From NCBI GenBank assembly GCA_963746845.1, contig CAVVCZ010000004.1:32001-96000 (forward strand): 64,000 bases of DNA, given 5' to 3'. The first letter of the stretch is position 1, and each line of letters opens with the position of its first letter. A model generated the notes under the pieces. The model had not been told where the DNA came from. It saw only the letters and a list, made by a program, of their open reading frames with translations, and searched no databases. The position numbers and the translations under genes are program-made. The DNA comes from an uncultured Chloroflexia bacterium (lineage in GTDB: Bacteria > Chloroflexota > Limnocylindria > Limnocylindrales > CSP1-4). Positions 1 to 29,846 of this stretch are shown piece after piece.

Positions 1-2
1 CG

Positions 3-281
3 TCCGACGCGAAGCGCTCGCTCCGGGCGGCGATCGACGACTACCTGCACCCGGCCGAGAACGCCCCGTTCGGTCGCGAGCTGTTCGCCTCGACGATCGT
101 CCGGTTCCTCGAGTCGCGGCCGGAGATCGACCACGTCACCGACTTCGCGCTGATCGCGGATCCGTGCCCGCCGGGCGTTCCGTCCGACCCCTGCCGGGTG
201 GAGCGCGTCACGGTTGATCCGTGCCGCGGGCTGGTCGCCTCGAGCGGCAGCCACGCGCTGGAGCTGGAGGAGCAGCTGTGA
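3..281 (+). CDS. eCIS baseplate J-like protein (Afp11-like), C-terminal fragment (5' end outside window)
   Basis: Frame 3 reads SDAKRSLRAAIDDYLHP..FGRELFASTIVRFLESRPEIDHVTDF..LVASSGSHALELEEQL*, resembling the Afp11/baseplate-J C-terminus; TGA overlaps the next GTG. Confidence 0.7.
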   Translation, partial: SDAKRSLRAAIDDYLHPAENAPFGRELFASTIVRFLESRPEIDHVTDFALIADPCPPGVPSDPCRVERVTVDPCRGLVASSGSHALELEEQL

Positions 282-1963
282 GCCCGGCCGTTCCGCCCCC
301 GGTCGCCCTCGCCCCGCTGACCGCGCCGGACCGCGACTTCGAGACGATCCGGGCGGAGGCGATCGAGGTGATCGTCGCCGACGCCGGCCCGACGTGGACC
401 GACCACAACCTGAGCGACCCGGGGATCACCCTGCTCGAGCTCCTCGCCTACGGGATCGCCGACCTCCACTACCGCACCTCCGCCCACGACTTCACGCTCG
501 CCCCGCTCGAGCTGCCGCTGTGGGTGCCACGCGCGGAGCGCGACTGGTACGGCCTGCCGCCGCTGGACGATCCCGGGGCCGTCGCGACGCTCGCCGGCGT
601 GATGGCCACGCCGGTCTCGACCGGTGGGTTGGACGGGGATCGGATGGCGAAGGCGATCGCCGGTGCCGACTCGCGGCGCGCGGCGATCGGGGCCCTGCTC
701 GACCAGACGTTCGGCGATCCGGTGCGGACGCTGTCCTGGGCCGAAGCCGCGACCGTCGTGGCCCTCCTCCGTGCGCCGATCGTGCGCCGCGCGGTGCTGG
801 ATCACTCGGACGCGGTCGCCGACGCGTACGACGAGGCGCGCCGGACGATCGACCGGCGGACGATCGGCCCGACGATCGACGAGGACGCGGTCGACCGGGA
901 GACGATCCGGCTCCTCGGGTTCGTGCCGGCGCTCTCGGGCCTGTGGGACGACGAGGTGCTCTCGCTGATCCGCCGCCATCGTCACGAGCTGTTCGTGGAC
1001 CGGGCCGCCGCCCTCCTCCCGTCGATGCCCGGCACGATCGCCGACGTCGAGACCGCGCTCGGGGTCGGCACGGACCTGGCCCGGGCCGCGCTCGCCCTCC
1101 ACCCGTGCCCGCCGTCCGAGACCCCCGAGACCTGGGAGGCGGACGACGGGACGACGACGACGTGGCCGCCGCATCCGCTCCAGGCCCGGACGACCGAGCC
1201 GGTGACGGACGAGGACTACGCGACCCGCGCCCGCACGAACGCGACCGTGCACCGGGCCTGGACCGTGCCCCACATCCTGCCCGGCCTGGGCTGGGATGGC
1301 ACCGAGCGGACGACCGCCGAGGACCGGCCCGGCGCGGTCACGATCCTCGTGGAGCCCGTTCAGGCTCCACTGCCCGCCGACCGATTGACATTCCTGCGGT
1401 CGGTGCTGGTCACGATCACCGCCGGACCCGGCGAGACGGCCGAGGTCGACGACCCGTACGACCCCCTCTCGAAGCCGGACCTCCAGGTCCCGCGCCGGCT
1501 CCTGGGCGACGAGCTCGGCGTGGCCCTGCTCCAGGAGTGCCCGGTGACGCTCAACGGCGTGCTGCACGTCGCCCTCGGCGTGCCACGGACGCGGGTGATC
1601 GACGCGGCCACGGCCCGGGTCGCGGCGTTCTTCGCGGCCGGCCGCCCGGAGTCCGCGGTCGCCGTGGCCGGCGCCCTCGCGTGCCCGGGCGGGATCGAGG
1701 GCCCGTGGCCGCCCGCGCCGCAGCCGGCGGGCGGGTGGCGGCCGGGCGAGGCGATCCGGATGACCGAGCTGATCCAGGTCCTGGCGGACGACCCGGAGGT
1801 CATCGGGATCGAGGGGGTCGAGGTCCAGATCGGTGGGACCTGGTATTCGGCCTCCGCCGGGGCGACGGAGGTCCCGCTCGATCCGGAATGCATCCCGGTC
1901 ATGGCGAAGACGCAGTGCCTCCAGGTCCGGCTGGAGCTCGGCGCGGATTGCAACCGTGGCTAG
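278..1963 (+). CDS. eCIS baseplate wedge protein (Afp12-N/gp6-like)
   Basis: Hallmark WTDHNLSDPGITLLELLAY..DLHYR motif, plus VTDEDYATRA; GTGA coupling to the upstream gene. Confidence 0.85.
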   Translation: MSPAVPPPVALAPLTAPDRDFETIRAEAIEVIVADAGPTWTDHNLSDPGITLLELLAYGIADLHYRTSAHDFTLAPLELPLWVPRAERDWYGLPPLDDPGAVATLAGVMATPVSTGGLDGDRMAKAIAGADSRRAAIGALLDQTFGDPVRTLSWAEAATVVALLRAPIVRRAVLDHSDAVADAYDEARRTIDRRTIGPTIDEDAVDRETIRLLGFVPALSGLWDDEVLSLIRRHRHELFVDRAAALLPSMPGTIADVETALGVGTDLARAALALHPCPPSETPETWEADDGTTTTWPPHPLQARTTEPVTDEDYATRARTNATVHRAWTVPHILPGLGWDGTERTTAEDRPGAVTILVEPVQAPLPADRLTFLRSVLVTITAGPGETAEVDDPYDPLSKPDLQVPRRLLGDELGVALLQECPVTLNGVLHVALGVPRTRVIDAATARVAAFFAAGRPESAVAVAGALACPGGIEGPWPPAPQPAGGWRPGEAIRMTELIQVLADDPEVIGIEGVEVQIGGTWYSASAGATEVPLDPECIPVMAKTQCLQVRLELGADCNRG

Positions 1964-2783
1964 TCAGTCGCCGGTCTACACGCCCCTGGCGGCCCAGCTC
2001 CCGGCCGTCTATGCGGAGGACTCCGACTCCTGGGCCCAGCTCGAGTCGTACCTCGGCCTGGCGGACGACCTCAACCGGGCCTACGCCGAGCGGCTGGCCG
2101 AGCTCGCGACCTGGCTCAGCCCGGAGGCGACGTCGCTCTGGCCCGGTGACCGGGCCGTCGGGATGACGGAGGACGCGGTCCTCGCCCGCTACCAGGCCGT
2201 CTTCGACGAGCTGGCCCGCTGGTTCGCCTTCCGGTTCCCGCCGTCGTGGGGCGTCGACGCGGCGTCGTTGCGGCAGCGCCAGACGTTCCTCGCCCGGGCC
2301 GCGCGCCTGTGGCGCCGGCGCGGGACACCGCGCGGGTTCGTCGACTGGTTCGCCTTCTGGTTCCGGACCGAGCCCGCCGATCGCCCGATCCTCGTCGAGC
2401 ACTACAAGTTCGGGCAGCCAACCGGGTCGTCGGGCGAGGTCGGCCCCGAGCCCTGGCTGCGCGCGACGCTCTTCGTCCCCTCGACCGAGCCGTTCTCCGA
2501 CTTCAACCGGCGACGCGAGGCGATCTGGTTCGCCGAGCAGTTTGCGCCGGCCCACGTCCACGTCCGGGTCTGCTGGGTGAAGCCCGGCTGGAGCCTGGAC
2601 CCGGTGCCGGGACCCGGCGCCACCCCCTCCGACATCGCCGCCTACCGGAAGCGGGTCAACGGCGTGCTCTGCTCGCTCGTGAGCTTCGTCGACCACGCGA
2701 ACGGCATCCACATCTGGGAGTGCGTCGACGAGGGGCGACCGGTCGACCGACTGAACGTCGGCCAGCTGCCCGGCGGCGGCTGA
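1956..2783 (+). CDS. Phage tail protein I-like (P2 gpI/gp7) baseplate protein
   Basis: QLPAVY, ELARWF, LWRRRGTPRG, ILVEH and FAPAHV motifs typical of gpI-like wedge proteins; overlaps the upstream stop. Confidence 0.8.
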   Translation: MASQSPVYTPLAAQLPAVYAEDSDSWAQLESYLGLADDLNRAYAERLAELATWLSPEATSLWPGDRAVGMTEDAVLARYQAVFDELARWFAFRFPPSWGVDAASLRQRQTFLARAARLWRRRGTPRGFVDWFAFWFRTEPADRPILVEHYKFGQPTGSSGEVGPEPWLRATLFVPSTEPFSDFNRRREAIWFAEQFAPAHVHVRVCWVKPGWSLDPVPGPGATPSDIAAYRKRVNGVLCSLVSFVDHANGIHIWECVDEGRPVDRLNVGQLPGGG

Positions 2784-2812
2784 GCCCGCGGAGCGAAGGA
2801 AAGGATCGAGCC

Positions 2813-5050
2813 ATGGCGCTCACGCAGTACCCGGTCTTCGTCAAGGGCCAGACCCTGACCGACGACGACCTGAACGAGCTCCGCGACCATCTCGAGCTCG
2901 CGGACCGGACCCTCGGCCGCCTGATCGGATTCGGGATCAACTGCGGGCTGGGCGGGTCGATCGCGAACAAGCAGCTGACGATCGCTCCGGGTCTCGCGAT
3001 CGACCAGCTCGGCGAGGCCATCGTCCTCGACGTCGCGCCGGGCCCGTTCGGTCTGCCGGCGACGGCTCCGGCGACGACCCCGCCGGACTTCCTCGATCCG
3101 GTGCCGGGCGGGTTCACGCCGGTCCTGACCCTGACCACGACCGACGTCCCGGCCGTCAAGTGCAACGAGGCGGGGTGCGAGGGCCACGCCCAGCAGCGCG
3201 AGCAGACCGCGACGATCACCCTCTACCCGGGCCGGCTGAGCGACAAGGTGGTCGACTTCGGGGACGAGCCGCTGCTCAAGCTCGATCCGGTGCTGGTCCG
3301 GACGTCCGGCTCGATCGACGGAGCGTTCGTCGCCCTGCGCAAGGCGATCCTCGACCGGATGGGCTCGCGCCTGTCGGCCGACGCTGCCGCGAAGCTCGCG
3401 ACGATCGCGATCGACGGCGATCTGCCGGCGATCCAGGGGTTCAAGGCCGGGTTCCTCAACCAGGTCTTCTTCGCCGCCCTCGACCTCCTCCGGTGCGAGC
3501 GGCTCACCGCGGCCGGCTGCGTGTCCGGGGACGGAAGCGTCGGCGTCGCCCTCGGCTGGGCCCACGACGTCCAGGGCGACTGGGCGTGGGACTGCGAGTT
3601 CCGCCACGACTGGCAGGTCCCGACGGGGATCTCGCTCGCCCTGATCGGCGGCCGGTGTGCCGATCCGTGCGACCTGTACCGCGACCAGCTCAACGCGATG
3701 ATCCTCGCGTTCGCGGTGCCGGTCGTGCCGCCGAAGGACGCGCCGCCCAAGGATGGTGGCGGCGACTTCTCGATCTGCCTGGATCGCGGACGCGGTCCGT
3801 ACTACTCGTACATCAGCAAGTACGACTGCCCGTGGGTCTACGTCCCGCCCCAGAAGATCCCGCCGGACTGGCGCGAGAAGTGGGTCAAGCCGAAGTACCC
3901 GCCGGGCCCGATCTACGAGGACCGGCCGATCTACGACATCTACGAGATCGAGAAGCCGGACATCACCGAGGCCGGGATCATCGGGCTCGAGGACGCCGTG
4001 GGCCGCAAGGCCGAGAACGTCGTCGAGAACCTCGGCCAGGTCTTGAAGGACAAGGGCAACACCTCCGAGATCCAGGTCGTGACGCAGAACCAGGTCGAGA
4101 AGGTCGACGGCTACCGGCCCGGGCTGATCATCTCCGCCGCGGACACCGTGGTCCTGACCCAGGACGCCCTCGGCAAGGTCGTCGGGGTCGGCTCGATCCC
4201 GGCCACGACCGCGATCCGGAGCGTGGCCGTCGAGATGCCGAAGGCCACCGCGGCCGCGGGCCGCGCGGAGGTCACCGCGAAGAGCGCTCTCGACGCGACC
4301 GGGGCCCTCGGCACGAGCCTCGCCGCGGTCAACCAGCAGGTCACCGCGTTCGGCACGTTCCAGGCCTCGATCCTGAGCTGGCAGTCCGCGACGGACGTCC
4401 GGCTCGGTGGGCTGTCGAACGAGATCCAGACGAAGGCCCTCGCGGCGGTCAACGACCTCCAGGTCCGGGTGGGCGGCCAGGTCGAGGAGCGGGTCGGAGT
4501 TGCCGTGGAGACGTTCCGGGCCGGCCTGCTCGACCAGGTCCGGGCGGAGATCGCGACCGCCGGCGGGGCGATCCGTGCCGACGCCGGTCACGACCTCCAG
4601 ATCGCGACCGATGCCCTCCGCAAGGAAGCCAAGGAGGACCAGGCCGGGCTCGTGGCGCAGGTCGGCGGCCTGAACCAGCAGGTCGCCGGGCTGTCCGGCC
4701 AGGTCCAGGTCATCGGCCGGGTCGCGACGCCGGGTGACGTCGTGGCTCCGCGGCGGGCGTTCGATGCGGACGTGGTCGGGGTGCTGGACCAGATGCGCAC
4801 ATCGATCCAGGCCGCGGCCACGCCGGCCCAGGCGGACAAGGTCAAGGCGGCCCTGGCCGAGAGCGACGACGCCTTCAGCCGAATGCAGGTCTCGGCGGCC
4901 GCGGGCACGGTCGACCTCGCGGCCGATCCGGTGGCCCTCCACACGGTGCTCACCTCGATGACGACGGCGGTCGAGGCGGCCGGCGCCCCGGCGGCGGACG
5001 TCACGAAGATCCGGACCGGGTTGTCCGCGATCAACCAGCGCATCGGCTGA
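2813..5050 (+). CDS. eCIS tail-fibre-like protein (Afp13-like N-terminus, helical/coiled-coil C-terminus)
   Basis: N-terminal YPVFVKGQTLTDDDLNEL..LIGFGINCGL..IAPGLAID motif of eCIS fibre anchors; RBS AAGGA upstream. Confidence 0.7.
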   Translation: MALTQYPVFVKGQTLTDDDLNELRDHLELADRTLGRLIGFGINCGLGGSIANKQLTIAPGLAIDQLGEAIVLDVAPGPFGLPATAPATTPPDFLDPVPGGFTPVLTLTTTDVPAVKCNEAGCEGHAQQREQTATITLYPGRLSDKVVDFGDEPLLKLDPVLVRTSGSIDGAFVALRKAILDRMGSRLSADAAAKLATIAIDGDLPAIQGFKAGFLNQVFFAALDLLRCERLTAAGCVSGDGSVGVALGWAHDVQGDWAWDCEFRHDWQVPTGISLALIGGRCADPCDLYRDQLNAMILAFAVPVVPPKDAPPKDGGGDFSICLDRGRGPYYSYISKYDCPWVYVPPQKIPPDWREKWVKPKYPPGPIYEDRPIYDIYEIEKPDITEAGIIGLEDAVGRKAENVVENLGQVLKDKGNTSEIQVVTQNQVEKVDGYRPGLIISAADTVVLTQDALGKVVGVGSIPATTAIRSVAVEMPKATAAAGRAEVTAKSALDATGALGTSLAAVNQQVTAFGTFQASILSWQSATDVRLGGLSNEIQTKALAAVNDLQVRVGGQVEERVGVAVETFRAGLLDQVRAEIATAGGAIRADAGHDLQIATDALRKEAKEDQAGLVAQVGGLNQQVAGLSGQVQVIGRVATPGDVVAPRRAFDADVVGVLDQMRTSIQAAATPAQADKVKAALAESDDAFSRMQVSAAAGTVDLAADPVALHTVLTSMTTAVEAAGAPAADVTKIRTGLSAINQRIG

Positions 5051-5068
5051 CCAGGGCGGACCCGTGAC

Positions 5069-6337
5069 GTGGACACGATCGAGCGGCTGCGGATCGTCTG
5101 CCTGGCCGGCCCGGGCCGGTCGGCCGAGGCGCTCGCCGTCCGACGCCGGCTCGAAACGGTGGCTCGTGGCCGGCTGCCAGCTGCGCTGGACCGACAGCTG
5201 GGTGCGAGTCCGTCGATCGAGCTGGATCGCGTGACCGTTCGCCTGGATGTCGACCCGCTCGCCCTCGACGACGAGACGCTCGCGACGCTGTGGGCCGGTC
5301 GGATCCGTGACGGGATCCTCGCGGCGAGCCGGCACGAAGGGGCGCCGGCCCGGCGGGACGCCCCCTCCTGGTCGGTCCTCGACGGTCGGGACGTTGACCG
5401 CGAGCCCATCGCACCGGACGGTCCGCTCGTGCCGACGGCCCGGCGCGTCATCGCGGGGGATCGGATCGCCGCGCTGGCGATCGCCCGGGCGGTCGAGCGG
5501 GGTCCGGAGACGGTGGCGGCCGAGCTGGCCGGCGGCCTCGCGCCGGGGGAGCGGCGGGCCCTGGTGGCGCGCCTCGTGGCCGAGGCATCCCGGCTGCAGT
5601 CGCGCCGGCGCGACCCGAGCGGTGACGGACCGGGTCGGGCGGGCCGGCCTCCGCGCGAGCGGGCCGTCGCTGGAGCCACCGTGGTCCGGGCCGGCCGATC
5701 GTGGCCGGCCGTCCTGGATCGCGCGTCCCGCCGCCTCGCCGCCGCGGATCGCGCCGCCGCACGGGCCGCGCGACCCGCGGACGGCGCGCGGGGTCTTCGG
5801 TCGGGCGTCGTCCGATCCGCTCGGCCCAGACCCACAGCGGAGCCCGGCCTCCGCACGACGGTCGCGGGGATTGCCCTGCTGTGGCCCTGGCTGGCCTCGA
5901 CCCTTCCCGCCGCGGTCGCCCGGCTCCCCGACCAGCGGCCGGCCGATGCCCGGCGTCTGGCGCTGGCCGCTCTCGTCCAGGACGAGCCGGCCGCCGTCGA
6001 CGACCCGCTCGTCCTCCTGCTGGCCGGTGACGACCCGACGGCGGACCCGTCGGTGATCGTCGTGACGCCCGGCGAGCTCGCCGCCGCCGCCGAGGACGTC
6101 GTTGCGACGCTCGATGGGTTCGCCGAGGCGCTCCCCGGGTTCGCCGGCTCGTCGCCGGACTTCCTCCGCCGCGAGTTCCTCGTCCGGCCGGGCAGGCTCG
6201 GGCGGATCGGCGACGAGGTCACGATCGACCTGGCGCCGCTCCCCCTGGATCCGGCAGCCGCCCGACTGCCGTATCCGATCGCCGCGTTCCGCCTGCCGTG
6301 GACGCCGCCGATCCGGGCGCGGCTCGAGACGCGCTGA
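5069..6337 (+). CDS. Contractile injection system tape measure protein (Afp14-like)
   Basis: C-terminal AGIALLWPWL..FLRREFLVRPGRL..LD..RLPYPIAAFRLPW signature; lies directly upstream of the ATPase. Confidence 0.8.
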   Translation: MDTIERLRIVCLAGPGRSAEALAVRRRLETVARGRLPAALDRQLGASPSIELDRVTVRLDVDPLALDDETLATLWAGRIRDGILAASRHEGAPARRDAPSWSVLDGRDVDREPIAPDGPLVPTARRVIAGDRIAALAIARAVERGPETVAAELAGGLAPGERRALVARLVAEASRLQSRRRDPSGDGPGRAGRPPRERAVAGATVVRAGRSWPAVLDRASRRLAAADRAAARAARPADGARGLRSGVVRSARPRPTAEPGLRTTVAGIALLWPWLASTLPAAVARLPDQRPADARRLALAALVQDEPAAVDDPLVLLLAGDDPTADPSVIVVTPGELAAAAEDVVATLDGFAEALPGFAGSSPDFLRREFLVRPGRLGRIGDEVTIDLAPLPLDPAAARLPYPIAAFRLPWTPPIRARLETR

Positions 6338-7668
6338 TGCTGACCCCGCTCCACGCCGCCGAGCTCCAGCGTTCGTACGAAGCCCTCCTGGGCGTGATCG
6401 CGATCCGCCTCGAGGAGCGGCGCGGGGAGCCCCGTGCCACATCGGGGGCCGTCCCGATAGGCGCTGACGACGAAGGCGTGCCGCCGCTCACGGTCCATGC
6501 CGGGACCGGGCCACTCGCCGAGGTCATCGGCGGTTGCTCGCTCTCGGCACCCGAGGCGCTGATCCTCGTCGCAGCCATCGCCCCGGAGATCGACGAGGGC
6601 GTCGGCCGCTGGTTCGGCGACCTGGTCGGCCGGCCCGAGTCGAGCGGGCTCACCGGCGAGGTCGCCCGGCGACTCGCGGCGCGATCGTTCGCCGGCCGGC
6701 TGGCCGCCACGGACCTGCTGGACCGGGAGGCGCCGCTGCGCCGGCTCGGCCTGCTCCTGCTGGACCCGTCGCCCCTCGGGACCTTCGCCGGGCGACTCCA
6801 TCCGGATCCCGACCTGCTCGCGTGGACCCTCGGCCGGCGCCCGCCGACGCCGGAGGACTCGGCGGACCAGACGGCGATCGCGCTGCGGACCGTCCACACG
6901 CTCGACGACGTCGTCGTTCCCGCCCACGTCCGCGAGGGCCTCGACGCGGTGGTGTCGCGGATCCGCCACCGCCAACAGGTCATCGACGGCTGGGGCTTCG
7001 GGCGTCATCACGACAACGCGAGCGGCATCGTCGTGCTGCTCCACGGCCCGCCGGGCACCGGCAAGTCGATGTCGGCCGCGGTGATCGCCCGCGCCGCGGG
7101 GATGCGTGCCTTCGCGGTGGATCTGTCGAGCCTCGTCAGCAAGTACATCGGCGAGACGCAGAAGGCGCTCGCCCGGCTCTTCGAGCGGGCCGAACGCGAG
7201 AACCACGTCCTCGTGTTCGACGAGGCTGACGCGATCTTCAGCTCGCGGACCGGCGTGCAGGACGCGCACGATCGGTACGCCAACCAGGATGTCGGGTACC
7301 TGCTCCAGCGGATCGAGCGTCACCCGGGCGTCGTGATTCTCGCCACGAACCTCCTCGCGAACATCGACGATGCGTTCCAGCGGCGGATCGACATCGCCGT
7401 CGAGTTCCCGGAGCCGTCCGTTGCGGAGCGCCTCCGGCTGTGGTCGGCGGTGCTCCCACCCGAGCTGCCCGTCGGACCGATCGACTTCGCCGCCATGGCC
7501 GACCGCTATCCGCTCACCGGTGCCCAGATCCGGGATGCCGCGATCGAGGCTGCCTACCTCGCGGCGGCCGACGGCCGGGTCGTCACGGAGGCCCACCTCG
7601 GAAGCGCGGTCCGGTCGCAGTACGTGAAGACCGGACGGACCGTTCCCGGGGCGCCCGCCGGACCATGA
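6337..7668 (+). CDS. eCIS AAA+ ATPase (Afp15-like)
   Basis: Walker A GPPGTGKS, Walker B VLVFDEADAIF, VDLSSLVSKYIGET, DRYANQDVGYLLQRIE; TGATG coupling. Confidence 0.92.
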   Translation: MLTPLHAAELQRSYEALLGVIAIRLEERRGEPRATSGAVPIGADDEGVPPLTVHAGTGPLAEVIGGCSLSAPEALILVAAIAPEIDEGVGRWFGDLVGRPESSGLTGEVARRLAARSFAGRLAATDLLDREAPLRRLGLLLLDPSPLGTFAGRLHPDPDLLAWTLGRRPPTPEDSADQTAIALRTVHTLDDVVVPAHVREGLDAVVSRIRHRQQVIDGWGFGRHHDNASGIVVLLHGPPGTGKSMSAAVIARAAGMRAFAVDLSSLVSKYIGETQKALARLFERAERENHVLVFDEADAIFSSRTGVQDAHDRYANQDVGYLLQRIERHPGVVILATNLLANIDDAFQRRIDIAVEFPEPSVAERLRLWSAVLPPELPVGPIDFAAMADRYPLTGAQIRDAAIEAAYLAAADGRVVTEAHLGSAVRSQYVKTGRTVPGAPAGP

Positions 7669-10600
7669 GCGGGCGCGCCGCCCCGTCGGCGACGCTCGAG
7701 CCGACCAGCGCGGCACGACCGACGCGGTCGCCCCACCCGGCGGTCGTGCCGGCGACCGCTGGCCCGACTGCGGCGGCGTCCGGGCCGTCGGCAAGCGGGA
7801 TCGTCGTCCGGCTCGGTGTCCTCGAGATCCCGGTGAGCCGGCCGGACGGCGCGGCGACGGTCGACCTGGAGCCCGGCCAGCGCCTCGGGCCCCTCGCGCT
7901 GCGATCGGTGAGCTGGCCTGTCGCACTTCTCCCGCCGGACGCGGCCAGCAGACCCGGGACCGTGGCGGCGCCGGAGCCGGACACGAGGCCCGGGGCCGGG
8001 GCGCCGGTTGGAGCATCGCCGGCTGTGGCATCGCCGCCCGCCGCCGCCCCCGCCGTCGCCGGGCCGACCCTCCTGGCCGGGATCGACGCGCCGTTCGTTT
8101 CCGGCACCGCCGCTGTCGATCTCGGGTCAGGCGGCGAACCCACCGGCCGGGTCCGTCTCGACGGCGCGATCGGGGTCGGCGGCGTGCGCCTGGCGGAGCT
8201 CGGCTATGAGGCGTCGGCATGGACGTCCGCGGATCGACTGCCGGTCCCGGTCGTGACCGCGGAGACGAACCGCCTGCTCGTCGACCTCTCGGGCTTCGCG
8301 GATCTCGCGAACGTCCAATTGGGTGGCGCCGGGCTCGTGCCGGTCGCCGAGGGGCGCTGGAGCCTGCCCCTGCCGGCCGACCTGGCCGCGGCCCTCCGGA
8401 CCGCCGCCCCCGCGACCCCAGCGCCCGCCGCCGGCGCCGACCCGCTCGCGGTGGCGGAGGCAAGGCTCCGTTCCGAGCCGAGCGAGCGGCAGCCCCTGGC
8501 GGACCCGGCCCGCGCGCTGCTCGAGGCCCTGCTCGGCGTGGACCTGGAGTCGATCGGCATCCACGTCGACCCGGCGGCGCAGGATGCGGCCGCATCGATC
8601 GGTGCCCGCGGCTTCACGCTCGGGGAGGAGGCGTTCTTCGGCGCCGGCGCGTACGGGACCGACCGCGAGGACCTCGCGGCGTTCCTCGCCCGGGCGATCG
8701 CCCGGGCCGTCGAGGGCATCCGCGGGCTGGTGGATCCCCAGGCGCACGTGGTAGACCCGGCCCAGGCCAGGTCGTCGCCACCGGCAGCGGCACCGGCGGC
8801 ACCGGAGGCCGCCCCGGCCCCGGACGCCCTCCCCGCCGCCGAGTCAGCGGCCGCCGCGGGCCCGGAAGCCGCCGCGGGCCCGGAAGCCGGCCCGGCCCCG
8901 GAGGCCGGCGCCGAGGCCGCCGCGACGCCCGAAGGCGAGGCCGTTGCGGGCGAGGAGGCGGCCGCGCCGGACGCCGGCGCTCCGGCCGAGGGCGAGGCCG
9001 CTCCGGCTGCGGCCCCGATCGAGCTGATCATGCCGCCGGCGCCGACCGAGCCCGGCCCCGCGCAGCAGGCCCGGATCGGCGGGGTCAAACAGGGCGCCGC
9101 GGCGACGGCGCGGAAGGCCGCGGCCCTGCCATCGGCGGCCGACACGACAACCGCCGCTCGCGGCGCGGTCACGGAGCCGCCCGCCGAGACCGCCGCGCGC
9201 GCCGAACGGGCGGTCGCGGATGCGCTCGGCAAGCGCGCCGAGCCCAGTCCGGAGATCGTCGCCCTGTGCGAGCGGATCCGGACCTCGATCCGCGAGCGAC
9301 GACCGGTCGATGAGGACGCGGTCAAGAAGACCGACTCCCGGAAGGTCGCCGAGCAGGCGGGCTCCTCGCTCAACACGGGCATCCAGTCGGACACGAAGCG
9401 GGTCGAGGGCTCCTACGCCCCGCTGAACAACCCTCCGCCGGGCACGCCCGCGCTCACCCCGGTCCCCGTCCAGGCGCCACCGGCGACCGTGGCGCCCACC
9501 CCGATCGGCGCCGATGGCGCGGCGCCGGACGCCATCCCGCCCGAGAACCTGTCGCTCGACGCCGATCGCCAGGCGAGCGACGCGCGCGTCGACGAGTCGC
9601 GGATCAACCGGCCCAGCGCGCAGCCGATCCAGGAGCCGCCGTTCACGACCGTCCGCGAGGGCCAGGCCGCCCTCACCGACCTCGCGGAGACGGGCCCGGC
9701 CAGGGTCGCGGCGCAGCAGCAGGAGGCGATCGGCCGCAGCCAGCAGGACATGGCGGCGCTCCAGCTCCAGGCCGTCGAGGCCCTGAATGCGTCGCGGGCG
9801 GCGACCGTCGGTGGGGTCGCGAAGGGCCAGACGAAGATGGTCGGCTCCGAGGAGCAGCAGCGGGCCGAGATCTCGCGTCAGGCGCAGGCGATCTTCGGCG
9901 AGGCACAGACGGGCGTCACCGCGGCCCTCGGCCCGCTCCAGAAGGACGCGATGGCCCGCTGGGACGCGGGCGTCGAGCGTCTCTCGACCGAGTTCCACGA
10001 CCACCTCGCGATGGTCCGCCGCTGGATCGACGACCGGCACTCGGGCATCGGCGGCTGGTTCGTCTCGGGCTGGGACTCGCTGACCGGCCTGCCGGACGAC
10101 ATCACGGACGAGTACACGAAGGCCGAGCAGGCCTTCGGCGACGGGGTCTGCGACCTGCTCCTGTCGATCTCGTCGGACGTGAACACGGTCATCGCCGCCG
10201 CCGAGGCGCTGATCGAGAGCGCGCGCCAGCGGATCGACGCGCTCTTCACGGACCTGCCGGACGGGCTCAAGGAGTGGGCCGCCCAGGAGCAGGAGAAGTT
10301 CCACGGCCAGCTGGACGGGCTGCAGCAGCAGACGGCCGCGGCGCGATCGAGCTTCGTGGAGGGCGTCTCCGAGAAGGCGGTCGCCGCCGTCGCCGAGGTC
10401 CAGGCCGAGGTCGAGCAGCTCCGCGAGGAGGCGAAGGGCCTGATCGGCAAGATCGCCGACGCGATCCAGGCGTTCATCGACGATCCGGTCCGGGCGATCA
10501 TCGACGGCCTCCTCCATCTCGTCGGCATCCCACCGGCCTCGTTCTGGGCGCTGGTGGACAAGATCGCCCAGGTCATCAGCGACATCGCCGAGGACCCCGA

Positions 10601-12965
10601 GAGCTTCATCAACAACCTCGTCGAGGGTGTGAAGCAGGGCTTCGAGCAGTTCTTCGACAACTTCGGGCTGCACGTCCTCCAGGGGTTCTGGGAGTGGCTG
10701 TTCTCCGGTCTCGGCTCGGTCGGCGTCCAGCTGCCGAAGGACCTGAGCGTCGGGAGCCTCATCACGTTCGCGCTCCAGGTGATGGGCATCACCTGGCCGA
10801 ACATCCGGAAGATCCTCGTCAAGCACATCGGCGAGGAGAACGTCGCCCTCATCGAGCAGGCCTGGCAACTCGTCTCGACGCTCATCGAGAAGGGCCCGAG
10901 CGGGATCCTCGACATGATCAAGGAGCGCCTCGCGCCGGAGACCCTGCTCGAGACGATCCTGAAGGCGGCGGTCGACTACCTGGTCGAGAACCTGATCAAG
11001 GCCATCGCCGTGAAGCTCATCAGCATGCTGAACCCCGCCGGTGCGATCTACCAGGCGATCCAGCTGATCTACACGGTCCTGAAGTGGATCTTCCAGAACG
11101 CGGCCAGGATCTTCAGCTTCATCGAAGCCGTCGTGAACGCCCTGGCCGACGTCATCGCCGGGAACCTGTCCGCGGTCGCCAATGGGGTGGAGAAGGCGCT
11201 CGCGATGCTGATCCCGCCCGTCATCGACTTCTTCGCCGAGTGGCTCGGCTTCGGCGACCTGCCGATCAAGATCGCCGAGGTCATCAAGTCGCTCCAGGAG
11301 GAGGTCCTGGCGGTCATCGACCAGATCGTCGGCTGGCTCGTGGAGCAGGCGAAGGCCCTGCTCAAGGCGATCGGCCTCGGCGGCGACGAGGACCAGAAGA
11401 AGGGCGCGGAGGACACGGAGCTCGGCAAGACGGTCAAGTTCACGGCCGGGGCCCAGGCACACTCGGTGTTCGTCCAGCAGAGCGGCTCTTCGGCAACCCT
11501 GATGGTCGCGAGCGCCCAGCAGGCCGTCACCGACAAGCTCGCGGGATGGCGCGCCATCGCTCCATCCAAGTGGAAGAAGGACCAGACCAGGTTGAAGGAG
11601 GTCGTCGCCCTCCTCGACACGGCCGACTCGTTGGCATCGACGGCGAACGCGGAAGCCAACCAGCTCGCGGGCGAGTTCGCGGCTGAACAGGCGGCCGCGA
11701 AACCCGAGGAGCACACGACGCCAAGCGACGACGCCCTGGAGAGCGAGGAGGTCACGCTGGCGTCGACGCTCCGGGAGCTGTTCAAGGCATTCGACGAGAA
11801 GGTCGACCTGACCTTGATCTTCGCGAAGGAGATCGACGGCTGCCATGTGGACGCCCAGGCCGATGTCCGGGAGGGGGTCAAGTCAATCGGCGAAGTCAAC
11901 CCGGAGATCGAGGATTGGAGTGCGATGAGAAGCCTGCTCATCAGCTCCAAGTCGAGGATCGGCTCGAGTCTCCAGGCCCCGATGCACTCAGCCACCGGTG
12001 GCTACTCGACCGCGGGTCAGGAATACGGAATGACGGCCATCGCCTCGGCCCTCGAGACATCTGACAAGGCGCCGGTCCGTGCGAAGAACCCCGACACTCG
12101 ACCCGCGTATCTCGTGTCACAGAAGCGGTACCTCAAGGTGGGTGCCGACAACGCCTGGGTTGCGGCGATCACTGCGCTTCAGGAGTCGATCCTTTCGAAC
12201 GCAGACCCAACGAATGCCCTCAAGGAGGCGCTCGTCGCGAAATGGGCGACGTCCGTTGAGCCCGATGAAGCGCTCGTCGAGGCTGTCTTGTCCGCCGGCG
12301 GGATCGTCAGCTTCCTCAAAGCGTTGTCGGACGCCCCGGTCGGCGAGATCACCGTCGCGATCTTCCAGGCCCTCTGGAAGACGCCGGCGAACAAGAAGTT
12401 CGTCAAGGACCGATTCCGGGGCGTGGCCCCGGGCCACCACGAGTGGATCCCGACGAATCTCATTCCAACGGTCGTCGCACGCGCCGAGAGCTCGGACGAA
12501 GCCCAGAATCTCTATCTCTGGGTCGACATGCAGAACGAGATGCGGACGGATACCGCGTGGGTGATCTTCAGTCCCGGCTACCGAACGCAGCCGCTGACGG
12601 AACCCGGCAAGGAGCCGAAGGTTGCCCTGACAGGCCACGCCGGGGCCGTCGGATATCGCTTCCGCCCGGACGACGAGACGCTGTGGCTTCAGGCTCACCA
12701 GGACGATTGGCACGAAGACCTGAGAACAACCTTCGACAAGGGCACCACCCCTTCTGACGTCGTTGCCCGCATGTTGGACTCGACGAAGACCAGCGTCTGG
12801 GCGGGTGATGCGGCAGGGAGCGTCACCTGGCGCACGTACTACGTCAAACAGTCAGAGGGTGGCGGCCCGCGGACACTCGAGGAGCTGGGATCCGCGCAGG
12901 TTGGGCGGTTCAATACCCTCGTGGACACGTTCAAGGTCTGGAAGCAGCAGTGGGTCAGGAAGTGA
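7665..12965 (+). CDS. Large eCIS-associated effector/polymorphic toxin: degenerate DUF4157, Ala/Pro/Glu linker, helical hydrophobic region, C-terminal His-rich tip
   Basis: ATGA coupling to the ATPase; DUF4157-like PL..ARALLEALLGVDLESIGIH..IGARGFTLGEEAFFGAGAY at ~8490-8715; 1766 aa; C-terminal GHHEWIP. Confidence 0.75.
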   Translation: MSGRAAPSATLEPTSAARPTRSPHPAVVPATAGPTAAASGPSASGIVVRLGVLEIPVSRPDGAATVDLEPGQRLGPLALRSVSWPVALLPPDAASRPGTVAAPEPDTRPGAGAPVGASPAVASPPAAAPAVAGPTLLAGIDAPFVSGTAAVDLGSGGEPTGRVRLDGAIGVGGVRLAELGYEASAWTSADRLPVPVVTAETNRLLVDLSGFADLANVQLGGAGLVPVAEGRWSLPLPADLAAALRTAAPATPAPAAGADPLAVAEARLRSEPSERQPLADPARALLEALLGVDLESIGIHVDPAAQDAAASIGARGFTLGEEAFFGAGAYGTDREDLAAFLARAIARAVEGIRGLVDPQAHVVDPAQARSSPPAAAPAAPEAAPAPDALPAAESAAAAGPEAAAGPEAGPAPEAGAEAAATPEGEAVAGEEAAAPDAGAPAEGEAAPAAAPIELIMPPAPTEPGPAQQARIGGVKQGAAATARKAAALPSAADTTTAARGAVTEPPAETAARAERAVADALGKRAEPSPEIVALCERIRTSIRERRPVDEDAVKKTDSRKVAEQAGSSLNTGIQSDTKRVEGSYAPLNNPPPGTPALTPVPVQAPPATVAPTPIGADGAAPDAIPPENLSLDADRQASDARVDESRINRPSAQPIQEPPFTTVREGQAALTDLAETGPARVAAQQQEAIGRSQQDMAALQLQAVEALNASRAATVGGVAKGQTKMVGSEEQQRAEISRQAQAIFGEAQTGVTAALGPLQKDAMARWDAGVERLSTEFHDHLAMVRRWIDDRHSGIGGWFVSGWDSLTGLPDDITDEYTKAEQAFGDGVCDLLLSISSDVNTVIAAAEALIESARQRIDALFTDLPDGLKEWAAQEQEKFHGQLDGLQQQTAAARSSFVEGVSEKAVAAVAEVQAEVEQLREEAKGLIGKIADAIQAFIDDPVRAIIDGLLHLVGIPPASFWALVDKIAQVISDIAEDPESFINNLVEGVKQGFEQFFDNFGLHVLQGFWEWLFSGLGSVGVQLPKDLSVGSLITFALQVMGITWPNIRKILVKHIGEENVALIEQAWQLVSTLIEKGPSGILDMIKERLAPETLLETILKAAVDYLVENLIKAIAVKLISMLNPAGAIYQAIQLIYTVLKWIFQNAARIFSFIEAVVNALADVIAGNLSAVANGVEKALAMLIPPVIDFFAEWLGFGDLPIKIAEVIKSLQEEVLAVIDQIVGWLVEQAKALLKAIGLGGDEDQKKGAEDTELGKTVKFTAGAQAHSVFVQQSGSSATLMVASAQQAVTDKLAGWRAIAPSKWKKDQTRLKEVVALLDTADSLASTANAEANQLAGEFAAEQAAAKPEEHTTPSDDALESEEVTLASTLRELFKAFDEKVDLTLIFAKEIDGCHVDAQADVREGVKSIGEVNPEIEDWSAMRSLLISSKSRIGSSLQAPMHSATGGYSTAGQEYGMTAIASALETSDKAPVRAKNPDTRPAYLVSQKRYLKVGADNAWVAAITALQESILSNADPTNALKEALVAKWATSVEPDEALVEAVLSAGGIVSFLKALSDAPVGEITVAIFQALWKTPANKKFVKDRFRGVAPGHHEWIPTNLIPTVVARAESSDEAQNLYLWVDMQNEMRTDTAWVIFSPGYRTQPLTEPGKEPKVALTGHAGAVGYRFRPDDETLWLQAHQDDWHEDLRTTFDKGTTPSDVVARMLDSTKTSVWAGDAAGSVTWRTYYVKQSEGGGPRTLEELGSAQVGRFNTLVDTFKVWKQQWVRK

Positions 12966-12973
12966 GGTCGACG

Positions 12974-13336
12974 ATGCCGAACTCGAGCTCGGGGATCGAT
13001 CTACTCGCCGCCCTCACGGATCGTTCTGCGGCCGAGATGCGCAGCGATCGTCGCGCGCTCGGGCGCGGCCTGTTCGCGCTCGGCGACATCGCCGTCTCGC
13101 TCCTGCGTGGGTACGTCAGCGAGGATCCCCCGGTGCGCCGAGCCGCCGAGGAGCGCTGGGCAGAGCTGAACGCACTGCTGCCGCCGCCCGAGCCGGCGCG
13201 CCCCGTGAGGTTCGCGCTCGACCCCGTGGAGCGGGAGCGGCTGCATTCGGCCCTGACCCGGGTCGTGGCCACCCTTCAGGACATCGAGCGGGAGACGATC
13301 GGCTCATCCGATCCCCCGCCGCGCACAAAGGCGTGA
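12974..13336 (+). CDS. Small hypothetical protein, candidate immunity/chaperone of the upstream effector
   Basis: 120 aa, starts 8 nt after the effector stop with a GAGG RBS; last gene of the + strand operon. Confidence 0.55.
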   Translation: MPNSSSGIDLLAALTDRSAAEMRSDRRALGRGLFALGDIAVSLLRGYVSEDPPVRRAAEERWAELNALLPPPEPARPVRFALDPVERERLHSALTRVVATLQDIERETIGSSDPPPRTKA

Positions 13337-13591: not shown

Positions 13592-14692
13592 TCAGGGCGT
13601 CAGGCGATAGAGGCGGAGGGCGTCGAGGGCGGGCTCGTCGAGCCGCTCGAAGCCGCCGAACCCGGCGCGGCCGGCGAGCTCGCGCATCGTGTCGGCCCGG
13701 ATCGCCGTCCCGATCCCCGCGCTGTCCGGCTCGGCCATCGCGGCGGGCAGGCAGGTCAGGATGCTGAACCCGTAGAACATGCGCTCGAGCTCCCCGGCGG
13801 GAGCCGTGAAGACGTCCTCGGTCTTCTCGTCGGCGATCAATGCCACGCCACCGGGCGCGAGCATCCCCCGGATCGTGGCGAGAGCCTCGACCGGGTGGCT
13901 GAGGTCGTGGATCGCCTCGATGACGACGACAAGGTCGTAGTGGCCGGCGGCGGCCGGGTCCGCCGCGTTGCGGACGGCGAAGGACACGCGATCGGCGAGG
14001 CCGGCCTCGCGGGCGTTGGCGTTGGCCCGCTCGATCGAGGACGGGTCGAGGTCGAAGCCGTCGACGCGGACGTTCGGATAGGCCGCGGCGATCGCGATCC
14101 CCGCCCAGCCCACGCCGCTGGCGACGTCGGCGACGCGTGCCGGCGGATCGGCCGACAGGCGCTCGTGGATGGCGGGGATGGCCGGGAGGATCTCCGTCCC
14201 GAGCGAGCCACGCAGCCACGGGCGGTTGAAGTCGCCCTGCAATTCGATCATGTCCGCGCCGTACGATGCCCACGGGACGCCGCCGCCGGTCCGGAACGCC
14301 TCGAGGACGTCGGGCAGGGCCATCGCGCAGGCGGTGACCGCCCGACCGAGCGGCGCGATCGACCACGGGCTGTCCGGATCGAGGAGGGGAGCGGCGTACG
14401 CATCGGGGAGGCGGAACCGGCGATCCGTCGGCGCCGCCGCGGTGTCGTCGACCTCGAGGATCCCGGTCGCGGCCTGCTGCTCGAGCCACTCGCGCGCGTA
14501 GCGCTCCGCGATCCCGGCCCGCGTCGCGAGCTCGCCGCTCGTTGCGGGGCCGCCGTCCCGGAGCGCTCGGTACAGCCCGAGCCGGTCGCCGAGATACACG
14601 GACAGCACGTCGAACATTCCGATCCCGGCCCCGAACAGCCGCTCGACGAGCTCGTCGGCAGTCTTCTCGGGACGTGCAACATCGACGGTCAT
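13592..14692 (-). CDS. Class I SAM-dependent methyltransferase with N-terminal wHTH (Rv2258c-like)
   Basis: LGDRLGLY..ERYAREWLEQQA N-terminus; RVADVASGVGW SAM motif; GFDLD; EAIHD. Confidence 0.9.
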   Translation of the reverse strand: MTVDVARPEKTADELVERLFGAGIGMFDVLSVYLGDRLGLYRALRDGGPATSGELATRAGIAERYAREWLEQQAATGILEVDDTAAAPTDRRFRLPDAYAAPLLDPDSPWSIAPLGRAVTACAMALPDVLEAFRTGGGVPWASYGADMIELQGDFNRPWLRGSLGTEILPAIPAIHERLSADPPARVADVASGVGWAGIAIAAAYPNVRVDGFDLDPSSIERANANAREAGLADRVSFAVRNAADPAAAGHYDLVVVIEAIHDLSHPVEALATIRGMLAPGGVALIADEKTEDVFTAPAGELERMFYGFSILTCLPAAMAEPDSAGIGTAIRADTMRELAGRAGFGGFERLDEPALDALRLYRLTP

Positions 14693-14844
14693 GTGGTTCC
14701 CCTCTCGTTCGGTCCTGGCGCCCGAGGATAGACCGAACGACGGTGCCGGCACGGGTCGGGCCGGACAGCGTGACGATGTGGAGACGTCCGGTTGGCAGGA
14801 TCACCGCACGCCACCTCGCTGGACCACCTCAGGAGGGAATCGAT

Positions 14845-19052: not shown

Positions 19053-19827
19053 CTAGCGGAAGAGGTCGAAGCTCGCGGGCATCAGCCCGTCCGCGATCGA
19101 GCCCTCCCCGAGGAGCGGGTGGGCGCCCCGGACCACGGCCACGGGCCGCCCGCCGACCTTGCCGAGGGCGAGCTCCGCGGCGGACGCGATCTCGTCGGCC
19201 GAGGCGCGGATCGTCGAACGCATCACCCGCCCGTCGGCGTCGACCGTGCCCCGGAGGTCCTCGATCGGGACGAGGCCGGACACGCCGATCGCGACGTCCG
19301 TGATGCCCCACCGCCAGGGCCGTCCGAACGAGTCGGACACGATCACCGGCACGTCCACCCCGAACCGCTCGCGGATCGCCGCGCGGATCGCCCGCGCCGA
19401 CGCGTCCGGGTCCCGTGGCAGGAGCGTCACGATCGACCCGCTGTCCGGCCCGACGTTCGACGCGTCGACGCCGCCGTTTGCGCACACGAAGCCATGGGGC
19501 GTCTCGGTGATCAGCACGCCGTGCTCCATCCGGACGACGCGGCGCGCCTCGCGCAGCACGACCTCGAGCTGGCGCGGATCGCGGTCCCACTGCTCGGCGA
19601 ACGCGACCGCTTCCGGTCGCGGCTCGATCGTCGTCAGGTCGACGATCGCCCCCTCGGCCTTCGAGACGACCTTCTGGGTGACGACGAGCACGTCGTCGGG
19701 TTGGAGCGGCGGGACGCCCGGCGTGCGTTCGATCGGCGTCGCCGATCAGCCGCCCGAGATCGTCGCCCGGGACGACCTCCGGGATGCCGTCGAGGGCGAT
19801 CGCCTCGACCCGGCCCTCAGCGGACAT
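19053..19827 (-). CDS. cofE: Coenzyme F420-0:L-glutamate ligase (apparent +1 frameshift near 19735)
   Basis: IPEVVPGDDL N-terminus in one frame; VVTQKVVSKAEG, CANGGVDASN and DSFGRPWRWG in another; removing one base joins them. Confidence 0.9.
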
Positions 19828-20458
19828 CGACGGGGCGGAGGCTCGCCTCCGCGAGCAGCAGGTCGTCCGGCGTGTCGATGTCGAGGGTGAGCGGCCCGCC
19901 GAGCTCGACCAGGTCCGCGCCCGCGGCTCGCGCCGCCGCGACATGGGCCGCGTGGCTGTCGCCGCCGTAGCAGGTGTCGATCGCGTCCGGCGGCGCGAGG
20001 AGCAAGGCGTTCGTGCCGCGGCCGTGGCGGTCCGCCACGATCGCGACGAGCGGACGCCGGCCCATCGCCAGCGTCGTCAGCACCGCCGCGATCGCCTCGG
20101 GGGTCACGTCCGGCAGGTCGATCGGCAGGATCAGGACCGCGGTCGCGCCGCCGGCGATCGCCTCCGCGCGCCCCGCGTCGATGCCCCGGTTCAGGCCCAC
20201 GTCCCGCTGCCGGAGTGGCCGCGCCCCGAGCTCCGCGGCCAGACGCCGGACGCCGTCGTCCGGCGTCACGACGAGCGTCTCCGCGATCCCGGGCGTCGCG
20301 ACGCAGGCCGCGATCGTCGTGCGGGCCAGGTGAAGCGTCAGCTCCAGGCGCTCCTCGGCGTCGAGCACCGCACCCAGCCGCGACTTCGCGCCGGTGAGCG
20401 CCCCGACCGGGACGATCGCGACCACCCGGCCGGCGTCGGGGGACTCGGGGTTGGGCAT
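19817..20458 (-). CDS. cofC: 2-phospho-L-lactate/phosphoenolpyruvate guanylyltransferase
   Basis: AKSRL, GLN, DLP, GTNALL and DIDTPDDL motifs; adjacent to cofE. Confidence 0.92.
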   Translation of the reverse strand: MPNPESPDAGRVVAIVPVGALTGAKSRLGAVLDAEERLELTLHLARTTIAACVATPGIAETLVVTPDDGVRRLAAELGARPLRQRDVGLNRGIDAGRAEAIAGGATAVLILPIDLPDVTPEAIAAVLTTLAMGRRPLVAIVADRHGRGTNALLLAPPDAIDTCYGGDSHAAHVAAARAAGADLVELGGPLTLDIDTPDDLLLAEASLRPVDVR

Positions 20459-24899: not shown

Positions 24900-24928
24900 G
24901 GCGCGGGACTCACGGCGGGGTCGAGCGG

Positions 24929-25925: not shown

Positions 25926-25929
25926 GGGG

Positions 25930-26376: not shown

Positions 26377-26437
26377 GACCCGATGGTACGCGAGCCGGCC
26401 GCGAGGGGCCGGGGAGGAGATGTCGCCGCGACGCTCC

Positions 26438-27646: not shown

Positions 27647-27789
27647 TACCCACGGTCGCCGTCTGCGAGGCGCGCCTCACACCGGCCCCGTGGCATCGTA
27701 CGCGCCGCCTGCGAACAGGCGCACAGGACGACGGTCCCATGGGCGACCGGGACTTCGGTTCGGAGTGCGGCGCTTCGCGAGCCTCCGCC

Positions 27790-28479: not shown

Positions 28480-28489
28480 GCCGGGAGGC

Positions 28490-29843: not shown

Positions 29844-29846
29844 GTC

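Follow-up and report, generated by a model that had tools for sequence, protein, structure and literature searches.

A predicted contractile injection system operon with a giant, polymorphic cargo protein in a Limnocylindria-like Chloroflexota genome

The largest open reading frame (ORF) in the contractile injection system (CIS) locus of Streptomyces davawensis encodes Tme, a protein with a DUF4157 domain near its N-terminus, long low-complexity stretches, remote similarity to phage tape measures, multiple predicted transmembrane helices and a C-terminal toxic module, and the Tme family is spread across phyla, Chloroflexota included (PMC11126660). DUF4157 is described as a marker of CIS cargo (PMC11297309), a DUF4157 protein binds parts of the spike (PMC13277306), and in AlgoCIS cargo is reported to possess a disordered N-terminal loading sequence and a dispensable DUF4157 domain, with an ATPase needed for loading (bioRxiv 10.64898/2026.05.27.728243). 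Here we analyse a 64,000-nucleotide (nt) stretch of DNA from an uncultured bacterium (‘the window’; GenBank assembly GCA_963746845.1, contig CAVVCZ010000004.1, here G000:C4:32001-96000; source assembly 3.56 Mb in 12 contigs, ~71% GC), of which positions 1-13336 appear to form the downstream half of a single long operon (G000:C4 ~21.5-45.3 kb) encoding a complete CIS. The best overall explanation, in which we have good confidence, is a complete CIS carried on an island, with a giant cargo protein whose toxin-like end is exchangeable and with a small accessory gene. The CIS operon is of a known kind and its effector falls within a class described not long ago, that of DUF4157 cargo resembling tape measures; new are the Limnocylindria-like host, the island status, the C-terminal domain here called HEWIP, the loss of the HExxH motif across the lineage, and the small gene as an accessory.

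The giant protein resembles Tme in being the largest ORF, with DUF4157 near the N-terminus, and in its low-complexity stretches, remote tape measure similarity and C-terminal module, the differences being a DUF4157 without HExxH and a HEWIP end in place of an EndA-like nuclease (PMC11126660). With the AlgoCIS cargo proteins Cgo1/Cgo2 and ATPase Alg15 it shares a disordered N-terminus, DUF4157, a variable C-terminus and an ATPase gene adjoining the cargo gene, although those cargo proteins have 498 and 1228 amino acids (aa), compared with 1766 aa here, where there is also a tape-measure-like trunk, a monoderm host and a system known from its genes alone (bioRxiv 10.64898/2026.05.27.728243). Streptomyces CIS-Sc (PMC10066040) and the CISs of Roseiflexus and other Chloroflexota (PMC12998442) are alike in their monoderm or high-GC hosts, but the window locus differs from them in its co-linear layout, fibre, canonical tape measure, 853-aa sheath and giant effector; the features that are reported to mark CIS-Sc, namely no fibre, no typical tape measure and a divergent layout (PMC10066040), are not those of the window locus. 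Afp and PVC, the extracellular CISs (eCISs) of Serratia and Photorhabdus, have the same core parts list (Afp1-16 equivalents), whereas here the cap gene heads the set, the wedge is apparently split over two genes, the fibre has a different anchor from that of Afp13, the effector is DUF4157- and tape-measure-like, and sheath similarity is much lower (E~1e-50).

The operon and its parts

From the window alone, an earlier sequence-only reading had recognised an injection-system operon with a CIS gene set and had expected sheath, tube and spike genes upstream. Pfam families of both halves bear this out. In the 14 kb directly upstream (locus L006), the missing CIS parts follow one another as consecutive genes on the same strand, with Pfam E-values between 1e-11 and 1e-41 from sheath to baseplate J; the order is a LuxR-type response regulator, the cap gene (Cis16; Pvc16_N/DUF4255, PF14065, E=3.9e-30), a gene for a 203-aa protein, the sheath, two gp19-type tubes (E=1.1e-41 and 1.1e-32), a LysM tube initiator (CIS_tube+LysM, E=5.7e-39), the VgrG spike (Phage_base_V, E=7e-24), the PAAR tip (E=1.1e-18), gp25 (E=1.6e-19) and baseplate J. 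The last of these runs into the window, where its C-terminal end extends to position 281 (+ strand); the full gene (Cis11/Afp11; G000:C4:29516-32281, 921 aa) matches PF04865 Baseplate_J (E=1.4e-11 over the full ORF) and the PDB sequences of Algo11 (1.1e-29), tCIS Cis11 (1.2e-20) and Afp11 (1.2e-11). The sheath (L006:4713-7274 = G000:C4:22713-25274) has 853 aa, compared with 350–690 aa for solved CIS sheaths, and appears to contain a large extra domain, because alignment with solved sheaths is limited to residues ~544–848 and a short N-terminal stretch. The 203-aa gene between cap and sheath (L006:4076-4687 = G000:C4:22076-22687) shows a good coding signal and has no Pfam or PHROG family.

Phages share the families of the sheath, tube and baseplate genes, as a defective prophage tail or tailocin would require. 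Pfam scans of the upstream CIS genes, of 39 further window ORFs and of 14 ORFs farther upstream found no capsid, portal, terminase or integrase, in agreement with what had been seen in the window from the letters alone, and across about 45 kb no head, terminase, integrase or lysis gene was found. Phage head genes upstream, or a lack of sheath and tube genes there, had been named beforehand as what would speak against an injection system; the former were looked for and not seen, and the latter are present. Moreover, Pvc16_N, CIS_tube, CIS_TMP and eCIS_core, together with the AAA+ ATPase and the Afp12-like wedge, make up a CIS-specific set. With the upstream parts present and head genes missing, the locus is therefore read as a complete CIS, and a prophage or tailocin origin seems hardly credible; nor can a CIS gene set of such composition be explained by chance.

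Within window 1-13336, analysis of reading frames by GC content at third codon positions (GC3), with inspection of start codons, supports the eight co-oriented and tightly packed genes first noticed there, all on the + strand and each with a GC3 of 0.85–0.95. With the best-supported starts, their junctions comprise four overlaps (4, 8, 1 and 4 nt), rather than the five originally counted, and three gaps (29, 18 and 8 nt), for which the range of 8–29 nt had been given correctly. The assignments made at first sight to the baseplate-J C-terminus, a wedge protein, a tape measure and an AAA ATPase are likewise supported, by PF04865, the WTDHN..DPGITLLE motif, PF19268 and PF00004, respectively.

The second gene (278-1963, +, 561 aa), which begins with GTG and shares 4 nt with the end of cis11, is predicted to encode a Cis12/Afp12-like wedge protein of N-terminal type. 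The WTDHN..DPGITLLE motif was confirmed, residues 35–88 match the PDB chains of All3315 (5.7e-8), Algo12 (5.1e-6), Pvc12 (2e-4) and Afp12 (4e-3), and the N-terminus matches TIGR02243 under the cut-off (E=1.7e-8). The third gene (1956-2783, +, 275 aa) had been called gpI-like, and a gpI-type baseplate adaptor is what its family suggests: the protein and four homologues (alignment A3) all match TIGR02242 (5/5, best 1.3e-6), although every one of these matches falls under the curated cut-off. The same five match positions 528–574 of the 715 in CIS12_fam (5/5, best 1.5e-6, again under the curated cut-off), while no PDB sequence matched the gene 3 product, singly or as a profile, and no Pfam tail family was found in any of the five members. 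From the N-terminal matches of gene 2 and the C-terminal CIS12_fam matches of gene 3 it appears, therefore, that the wedge protein, a single polypeptide in Afp and PVC, is here split over two genes, with gene 3 corresponding approximately to its C-terminal part; gene 3 is kept as a separate gene in five related loci.

The product of the fourth gene (2813-5050, +, 745 aa) is fibre-like, but its earlier description as Afp13-like did not hold. It has no Pfam family at cut-off, and an anchor of Afp13/Pvc13 type with an adenovirus-like shaft was rejected on the grounds that no such Pfam family is present and that Cis19/All3314 is matched instead. Alone, the protein matches All3314 weakly (E=0.29); a profile of ten N-termini from related loci (A2) matches it at E=8.5e-20 (7b5h_AA), over the N-terminal ~140 residues of the fibre, and also matches 9wt0_a, a trimeric PKD-domain chain, at 2.5e-12. 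All3314 (Cis19) forms the ‘crown’ trimer in the thylakoid-anchored CIS of Anabaena (PMC8894136), and the first ~200 residues of Cis19 define the eBAP4 anchor class in a 2026 fibre catalogue (PMC12923769). By tblastn, conservation was confined to the first ~80 residues in five of nine related loci, and the homologues vary in length between 366 and 1438 aa; a conserved N-terminus combined with variable length is the pattern typical of a fibre. The distal half is variable, alanine-rich and probably helical or coiled-coil, with no recognised binding module and no Ig, PKD or lectin modules, and the ESM Atlas gave weak leads only (scores <=0.84). We thus regard gene 4 as encoding a putative fibre or crown protein of the Cis19/eBAP4 class, alike in N-terminal homology and in its position downstream of the wedge genes. 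It departs from that class in the alanine-rich helical distal part lacking the modules named above, and in the company of a gpI-type gene, which the catalogue links to eBAP3/5 rather than to eBAP4 loci (PMC12923769).

The two genes that follow encode a CIS tape measure (Cis14/Afp14-like; 5069-6337, +, 422 aa; PF19268 CIS_TMP, E=1e-10) and an AAA+ ATPase with a winged-helix domain (Cis15/Afp15-like; 6337-7668, +, 443 aa; PF00004 AAA, E=7.7e-27; PF22977 WHD, E=1.5e-7). The latter carries the Walker A motif GPPGTGKS and the Walker B motif FDEAD, and is 56–58% identical to the ATPases of five actinobacterial loci.

The giant protein and the module at its end

The largest ORF of the locus (7665-12965, +, 1766 aa) appears to encode a Tme-like polymorphic cargo or effector protein with an exchangeable C-terminus. 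From N- to C-terminus it comprises an Ala/Pro-rich stretch of ~276 aa, a DUF4157 domain, an acidic Ala/Pro/Glu linker, coiled-coil-like segments, a helical trunk and a C-terminal domain. The DUF4157 domain (aa 277–336; 8493-8672, +) matches PF13699 eCIS_core with E=5.8e-11 to 1.9e-11, over profile positions 1–60 of 79 only, and is degenerate: where HExxH would stand (nt 8691-8705), the giant reads R-A-I-A-R. This is not peculiar to the window, as the motif is kept in 14 of the 38 homologues with a detectable core and missing in 24/38, including the three closest (P0001–P0003, proteins 67–78% identical). Since HExxH has been lost, we infer that the domain serves as a docking or handling module rather than as a protease. 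The description of the giant as a DUF4157-like effector, given at first sight, needs correction as regards the missing HExxH and the tape-measure-like trunk; its behaviour is that of a polymorphic effector.

The trunk (aa 947–1292; 10503-11540, +) consists of hydrophobic or amphipathic helices, its hydrophobic helical stretch covering aa ~950–1240, with 50-aa means of up to 1.0 in a simple Kyte–Doolittle scan, and matches tape measure families of the PHROGs ‘tail length tape measure’ group (phrog_1535, 1.7e-7; phrog_1272, 2.3e-7; phrog_58, 4.5e-4; phrog_8927, 3.2e-3). GC content is 0.60–0.69 over aa ~950–1766 (window 10000-13000), compared with 0.75–0.87 in the 5′ half and 0.71 in the genome, and GC3 of the giant gene is 0.96–0.98 until about nt 11400 and 0.77–0.90 thereafter. 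Amino-acid composition accounts for most of this fall, and there is some indication that the 3′ end is a foreign cassette.

A database search returned 187 homologues of the giant, from Streptomyces, Actinoplanes, Nocardioides, Cellulomonas, Arthrobacter and others, and also from Verrucomicrobia and Acidobacteria; relatives were placed in 18 genomic loci of Actinomycetota, Bacteroidota, Acidobacteriota, Rhodothermota and Pseudomonadota. Among relatives the trunk is conserved at 44–56% identity and the C-terminus is exchangeable: 48 of the 120 homologues listed, out of 187, end in HEWIP, and 72/120 have other ends, including nine PF13930 nucleases, one PF15604 and HNH-like motifs among those listed.

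The HEWIP domain (aa 1531–1766; 12255-12962, +; core ~aa 1534–1717) is a mobile, exchangeable, uncharacterised toxin-like module with a confident structural model and no matching known fold. An exhaustive HMMER search recovered 169 cluster representatives at E<=1e-3, in proteins of 200–2200 aa in which the domain is nearly always C-terminal. Among 42 representatives scanned, eCIS_core was present in six and no Pfam family covered the HEWIP domain; searches of Pfam, NCBIfam and PHROGs with the domain itself gave no family. Its AlphaFold2 model has a predicted local distance difference test score (pLDDT) of 93.6 and a predicted template modelling score (pTM) of 0.88, and comparisons returned no counterpart: a PDB profile search gave 0 matches at E<=10, Foldseek against the PDB reached a best E of 0.85, VIA-align against 48,161 chains a best Z of 4.8 (0 chains at Z>=5), and the ESM Atlas gave no score >=0.9, with phage hypotheticals only at 0.87–0.89. 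When metagenomes were scanned for proteins closely related to the toxin end, one distant locus came up. Nine columns are invariant among 29 sequences (H1592, E1593, P1596, W1619, R1627, H1658, G1660, H1683 and W1712), and the conserved set of His, Glu and Arg suggests that HEWIP is probably a metal-dependent enzyme. Two other identities were considered and rejected: an AHH/HNH-type nuclease, proposed from ‘GHHEWIP’, as only the second His is invariant and is followed by the invariant Glu (H-E); and a secreted enzyme, as a signal-peptide-like N-terminus was seen in only ~4/83 short homologues, many of the short ones being gene fragments.

Several points tell against so close a likeness to Tme and against an effector that crosses membranes. 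The giant has been likened to Tme (BN159_7576) by description, not by sequence alignment. Its gene follows that of the ATPase at the end of the operon, which has a separate PF19268 tape measure gene as well, whereas tme is directly upstream of the baseplate genes, so that the conserved synteny of Tme, at the tape measure position, is not seen here (PMC11126660). Tme has multiple predicted transmembrane helices (PMC11126660), and the simple hydropathy scan detected no strongly hydrophobic trunk segment in the giant, so that insertion of the trunk into a membrane is presumptive. The toxicity of HEWIP and its catalytic site are, similarly, putative, and the invariant His and Glu residues are presumed to cluster in the model.

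Host, island and lineage

By rpoB, the nearest named relatives of the host are metagenome-assembled genomes of Chloroflexi/Chloroflexota and Ca. Limnocylindrales (94–97%), and neither WhiB, LpxC nor Omp85 was found in the genome, which has 92% completeness. On these grounds the host is taken to be a monoderm, Limnocylindria-like member of the Chloroflexota and not an actinobacterium, in line with the initial impression of a high-GC lineage little studied for such systems. The giant's trunk was found in none of 42 other genomes of the genus (58–93% complete), and the HEWIP region in one of 36, as a marginal 42-residue match (E=9.6e-4). The flanks of the locus, 28.7 kb apart here, are 1.4 kb apart in congener G029, and two further congeners (G016 and G035) hold other DNA at the site; the borders show no tRNA and no integrase. 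Evidently, the operon and its LuxR-type response regulator lie on a horizontally acquired island of ~28.7 kb.

The genus has CIS genes of its own, with a Pvc16_N gene in 13 of the 42 other genomes. In the four of these 13 regions that were examined (G004, G012, G029 and G035; loci L034–L041), the layout is divergent in three, with sheath identities of 39–52%, and co-linear in G029 (45%). The divergent loci, built of a sheath/tube arm and a cap–ATPase–DUF4157 arm, represent a second CIS type and a lineage separate from that of the window locus.

Nearer relatives are actinobacterial. Trunk relatives occur in 15 other genomes of a 401-genome sample of the phylum, all at <=34% identity, while the order cis11–cis12N–gpI–fibre–tape measure–ATPase–giant is identical in Streptomyces (3 loci), Terrabacter and genome G770. 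In an ATPase tree of 20 rows (L022 was left out on account of its short match), the window and five actinobacterial loci form a clade with 100/99 support, apart from the clade of the congeners. The island thus seems to belong to a CIS lineage otherwise seen in Actinomycetota, where its nearest locus relatives are found. A qualification is that the window is sister to all five actinobacterial loci in this tree, so that transfer between the phyla in either direction is possible; for a different lineage, an exchange of CIS clusters between Streptomyces and Chloroflexota has been proposed before (PMC12998442).

Neighbouring genes are of mixed character. The 14 ORFs farther upstream include TIR, beta-lactamase fold, Macro, FHA, PadR, Kelch, MFS and TetR families; a TIR-domain protein, an AAA_14/DUF4143 ATPase and a Macro-domain protein near the contig start (L005:245-1129 and 10375-10923, G000:C4) may be defence genes. 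The first gene beyond the operon (13592-14752) codes for an HTH-methyltransferase and is convergent with it. Farther into the window are F420 genes (F420 ligase and CofC-like) with two luciferase-like monooxygenases, one of them fused to GNAT (19053-20458 and 23976-30698), a 90-nt tRNA-Ala(GGC) called by ARAGORN that abuts the F420-ligase start (19691-19780; its length is odd and the call may be false), and a 1205-aa protein with RNase_H_2 and AAA_11/AAA_12 helicase domains (58896-62513, − strand).

The small terminal gene and the mode of action

The operon closes with a small gene (12974-13336, +, 120 aa, GC3 0.85), which starts 8 nt after the giant gene with an ATG preceded, 5 nt upstream, by the ribosome-binding-like motif AGGAAGTGAGG; no intrinsic terminator-like site was found 3′ of it. 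Its family comprises 55 protein clusters of 77–148 aa from Streptomyces, Kocuria, Terrabacter, Pseudarthrobacter and metagenomes. The product is predicted to be all-helical (five helices in an AlphaFold2 model, pLDDT 83.4), without a Pfam or PHROG family and with a best Foldseek E of 1.3. The sequence-only reading had proposed a candidate immunity gene here; that the gene is real is supported, its role in immunity is not, in that it does not co-vary with the toxin and also occurs after a nuclease-ended giant. It is best seen, we infer, as a conserved accessory gene of the CIS lineage, with a part in assembly, chaperoning or regulation, and not as a toxin-specific immunity gene.

Both end genes invite a different reading. 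An immunity protein for the C-terminal toxin domain would suit the short distance and the ribosome-binding-like motif of the small gene, and the family's hidden Markov model (HMM) finds a homologue 3′ of the giant in each of the five other HEWIP loci on genome contigs, directly in four and after one inserted leucine-rich repeat (LRR) gene in Kocuria (L010), with none in the 13 other loci (0/13). In five of seven HEWIP loci (the window, L008, L009, L011 and L023) no gene stands between toxin and small ORF, which counts against our reading, as does the thought that the small protein may have a generic protective role for the HEWIP toxin family. Its divergence, however, tracks the trunk: between L008 and L023 the small ORFs are 82% identical, with toxins at 36% and trunks at 83%, and between L011 and L023 the values are 65%, 82% and 83%. 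In L043 (genome G770), gp25-to-giant synteny is unchanged, the giant ends in a PF13930-type nuclease without HEWIP, a 178-aa ORF at the immunity position overlaps both its neighbours, and behind it stands a homologue of the small ORF (E=1.5e-19). P0078 has a non-HEWIP end with read-through into a homologue of the small gene, and in a metagenome locus (L042) a HEWIP end lies directly before a Pvc16-like gene, with no homologue at all. Because identity follows the trunk, a homologue follows the nuclease-ended giant of L043 and an LRR gene is inserted in Kocuria, a toxin-specific immunity protein is unlikely; on the simplest model, the trunk and the terminal accessory gene are conserved and enclose exchangeable cassettes of toxin and immunity genes, the window being without a cassette gene. 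The L043 homologue is followed after 10 nt by a HisKA_3 sensor kinase and then a LuxR response regulator (L043:15804-17557), which hints at a regulatory link of the small gene; the window locus has a LuxR regulator without a kinase, at the operon head. For the giant, a mainly structural role as a tape measure or assembly protein, not injected as a toxin, would account for the PHROG matches in its trunk, its rank as the largest ORF and the name ‘phage tail protein’ that some relatives bear in source databases. It is at odds with the separate PF19268 tape measure gene, with a C-terminus exchanged among relatives for recognised nuclease domains, and with DUF4157 as a marker of CIS cargo (PMC11297309), and we judge it a shade more improbable even than the immunity role.

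Where the system would act is harder to judge. The nearest solved sheaths, by far, are 8bky/9gtp (1.5e-93), 8bl4 (8.5e-91) and 9ezm (2.1e-90), ahead of tCIS (2.1e-55), Afp3 (1e-52), AlgoCIS (1.5e-51) and Pvc2 (1.1e-49), so that the label ‘Afp/PVC-like’ first attached to the locus does not fit its sheath; 8bky and 8bl4 we take to be Streptomyces cytoplasmic CISs. A cytoplasmic system like those of Streptomyces and Roseiflexus would fire into the producer's own membrane and bring about regulated cell death, with the fibre-like protein as an internal anchor. This is a serious alternative, if in our estimate a somewhat doubtful one, and beyond the sheath it draws on the Chloroflexota CISs imaged so far by electron cryotomography, which are intracellular (clade IId; Roseiflexus particles; PMC12998442), on the origin of the Anabaena Cis19 homologue in a membrane-anchored CIS (PMC8894136), on the lysis genes not seen in the island, and on the lack of a dedicated immunity gene in most HEWIP loci. 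Against it stand the fibre and typical tape measure, both reported to be absent from CIS-Sc clusters (PMC10066040), a fibre in which reading of the sequence predicts no transmembrane helix, and the different lineage of the congeners' divergent-layout loci. The variety of toxin ends and the immunity-like genes that sister loci have as inserts fit conflict between cells, and for this reason use against other cells is preferred to pure self-lysis. The sheath and the imaged particles are nevertheless evidence against that preference, and the system is known here from its genes, its expression, assembly, loading and release being presumed. On balance we lean, by a little, towards delivery into other cells; a mode that is neither this nor self-directed is improbable.

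Were the giant delivered into other cells, the tape measure would set tube length, the AAA+ ATPase would load the giant by way of its Ala/Pro-rich N-terminus, and DUF4157, lacking HExxH, would serve in docking or handling. Contraction of the sheath would then expel the giant, its tape-measure-like helical trunk might aid the crossing of, or insertion into, a membrane, and the exchangeable HEWIP domain would act on the target. A bolder reading, plausible and still tentative, is that HEWIP represents a new enzymatic toxin fold (H-E...R...H...H) borne on a tape-measure-like conduit and mostly tolerated by its producers without a dedicated immunity gene, and that the helical small protein that always closes the operon is an unrecognised core accessory of a CIS lineage crossing Actinomycetota and Chloroflexota. 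On such a reading the small protein could help in loading or assembly, or could connect the system with the adjacent LuxR-type two-component control.

A trunk with an exchangeable end is the kind of scaffold sought for engineered CIS cargo, and the conserved small terminal gene is one that positional annotation would miscall as immunity. The natural series of DUF4157 domains without HExxH favours a role other than catalysis for this domain, a CIS marker, and HEWIP, widespread in 169 clusters, has a confident predicted structure with no known relative. For the Limnocylindria-like Chloroflexota, an abundant uncultured group of soil and freshwater, the locus adds a complete, co-linear CIS with a fibre, evidently acquired by horizontal transfer and unlike the type that other members of its genus carry.

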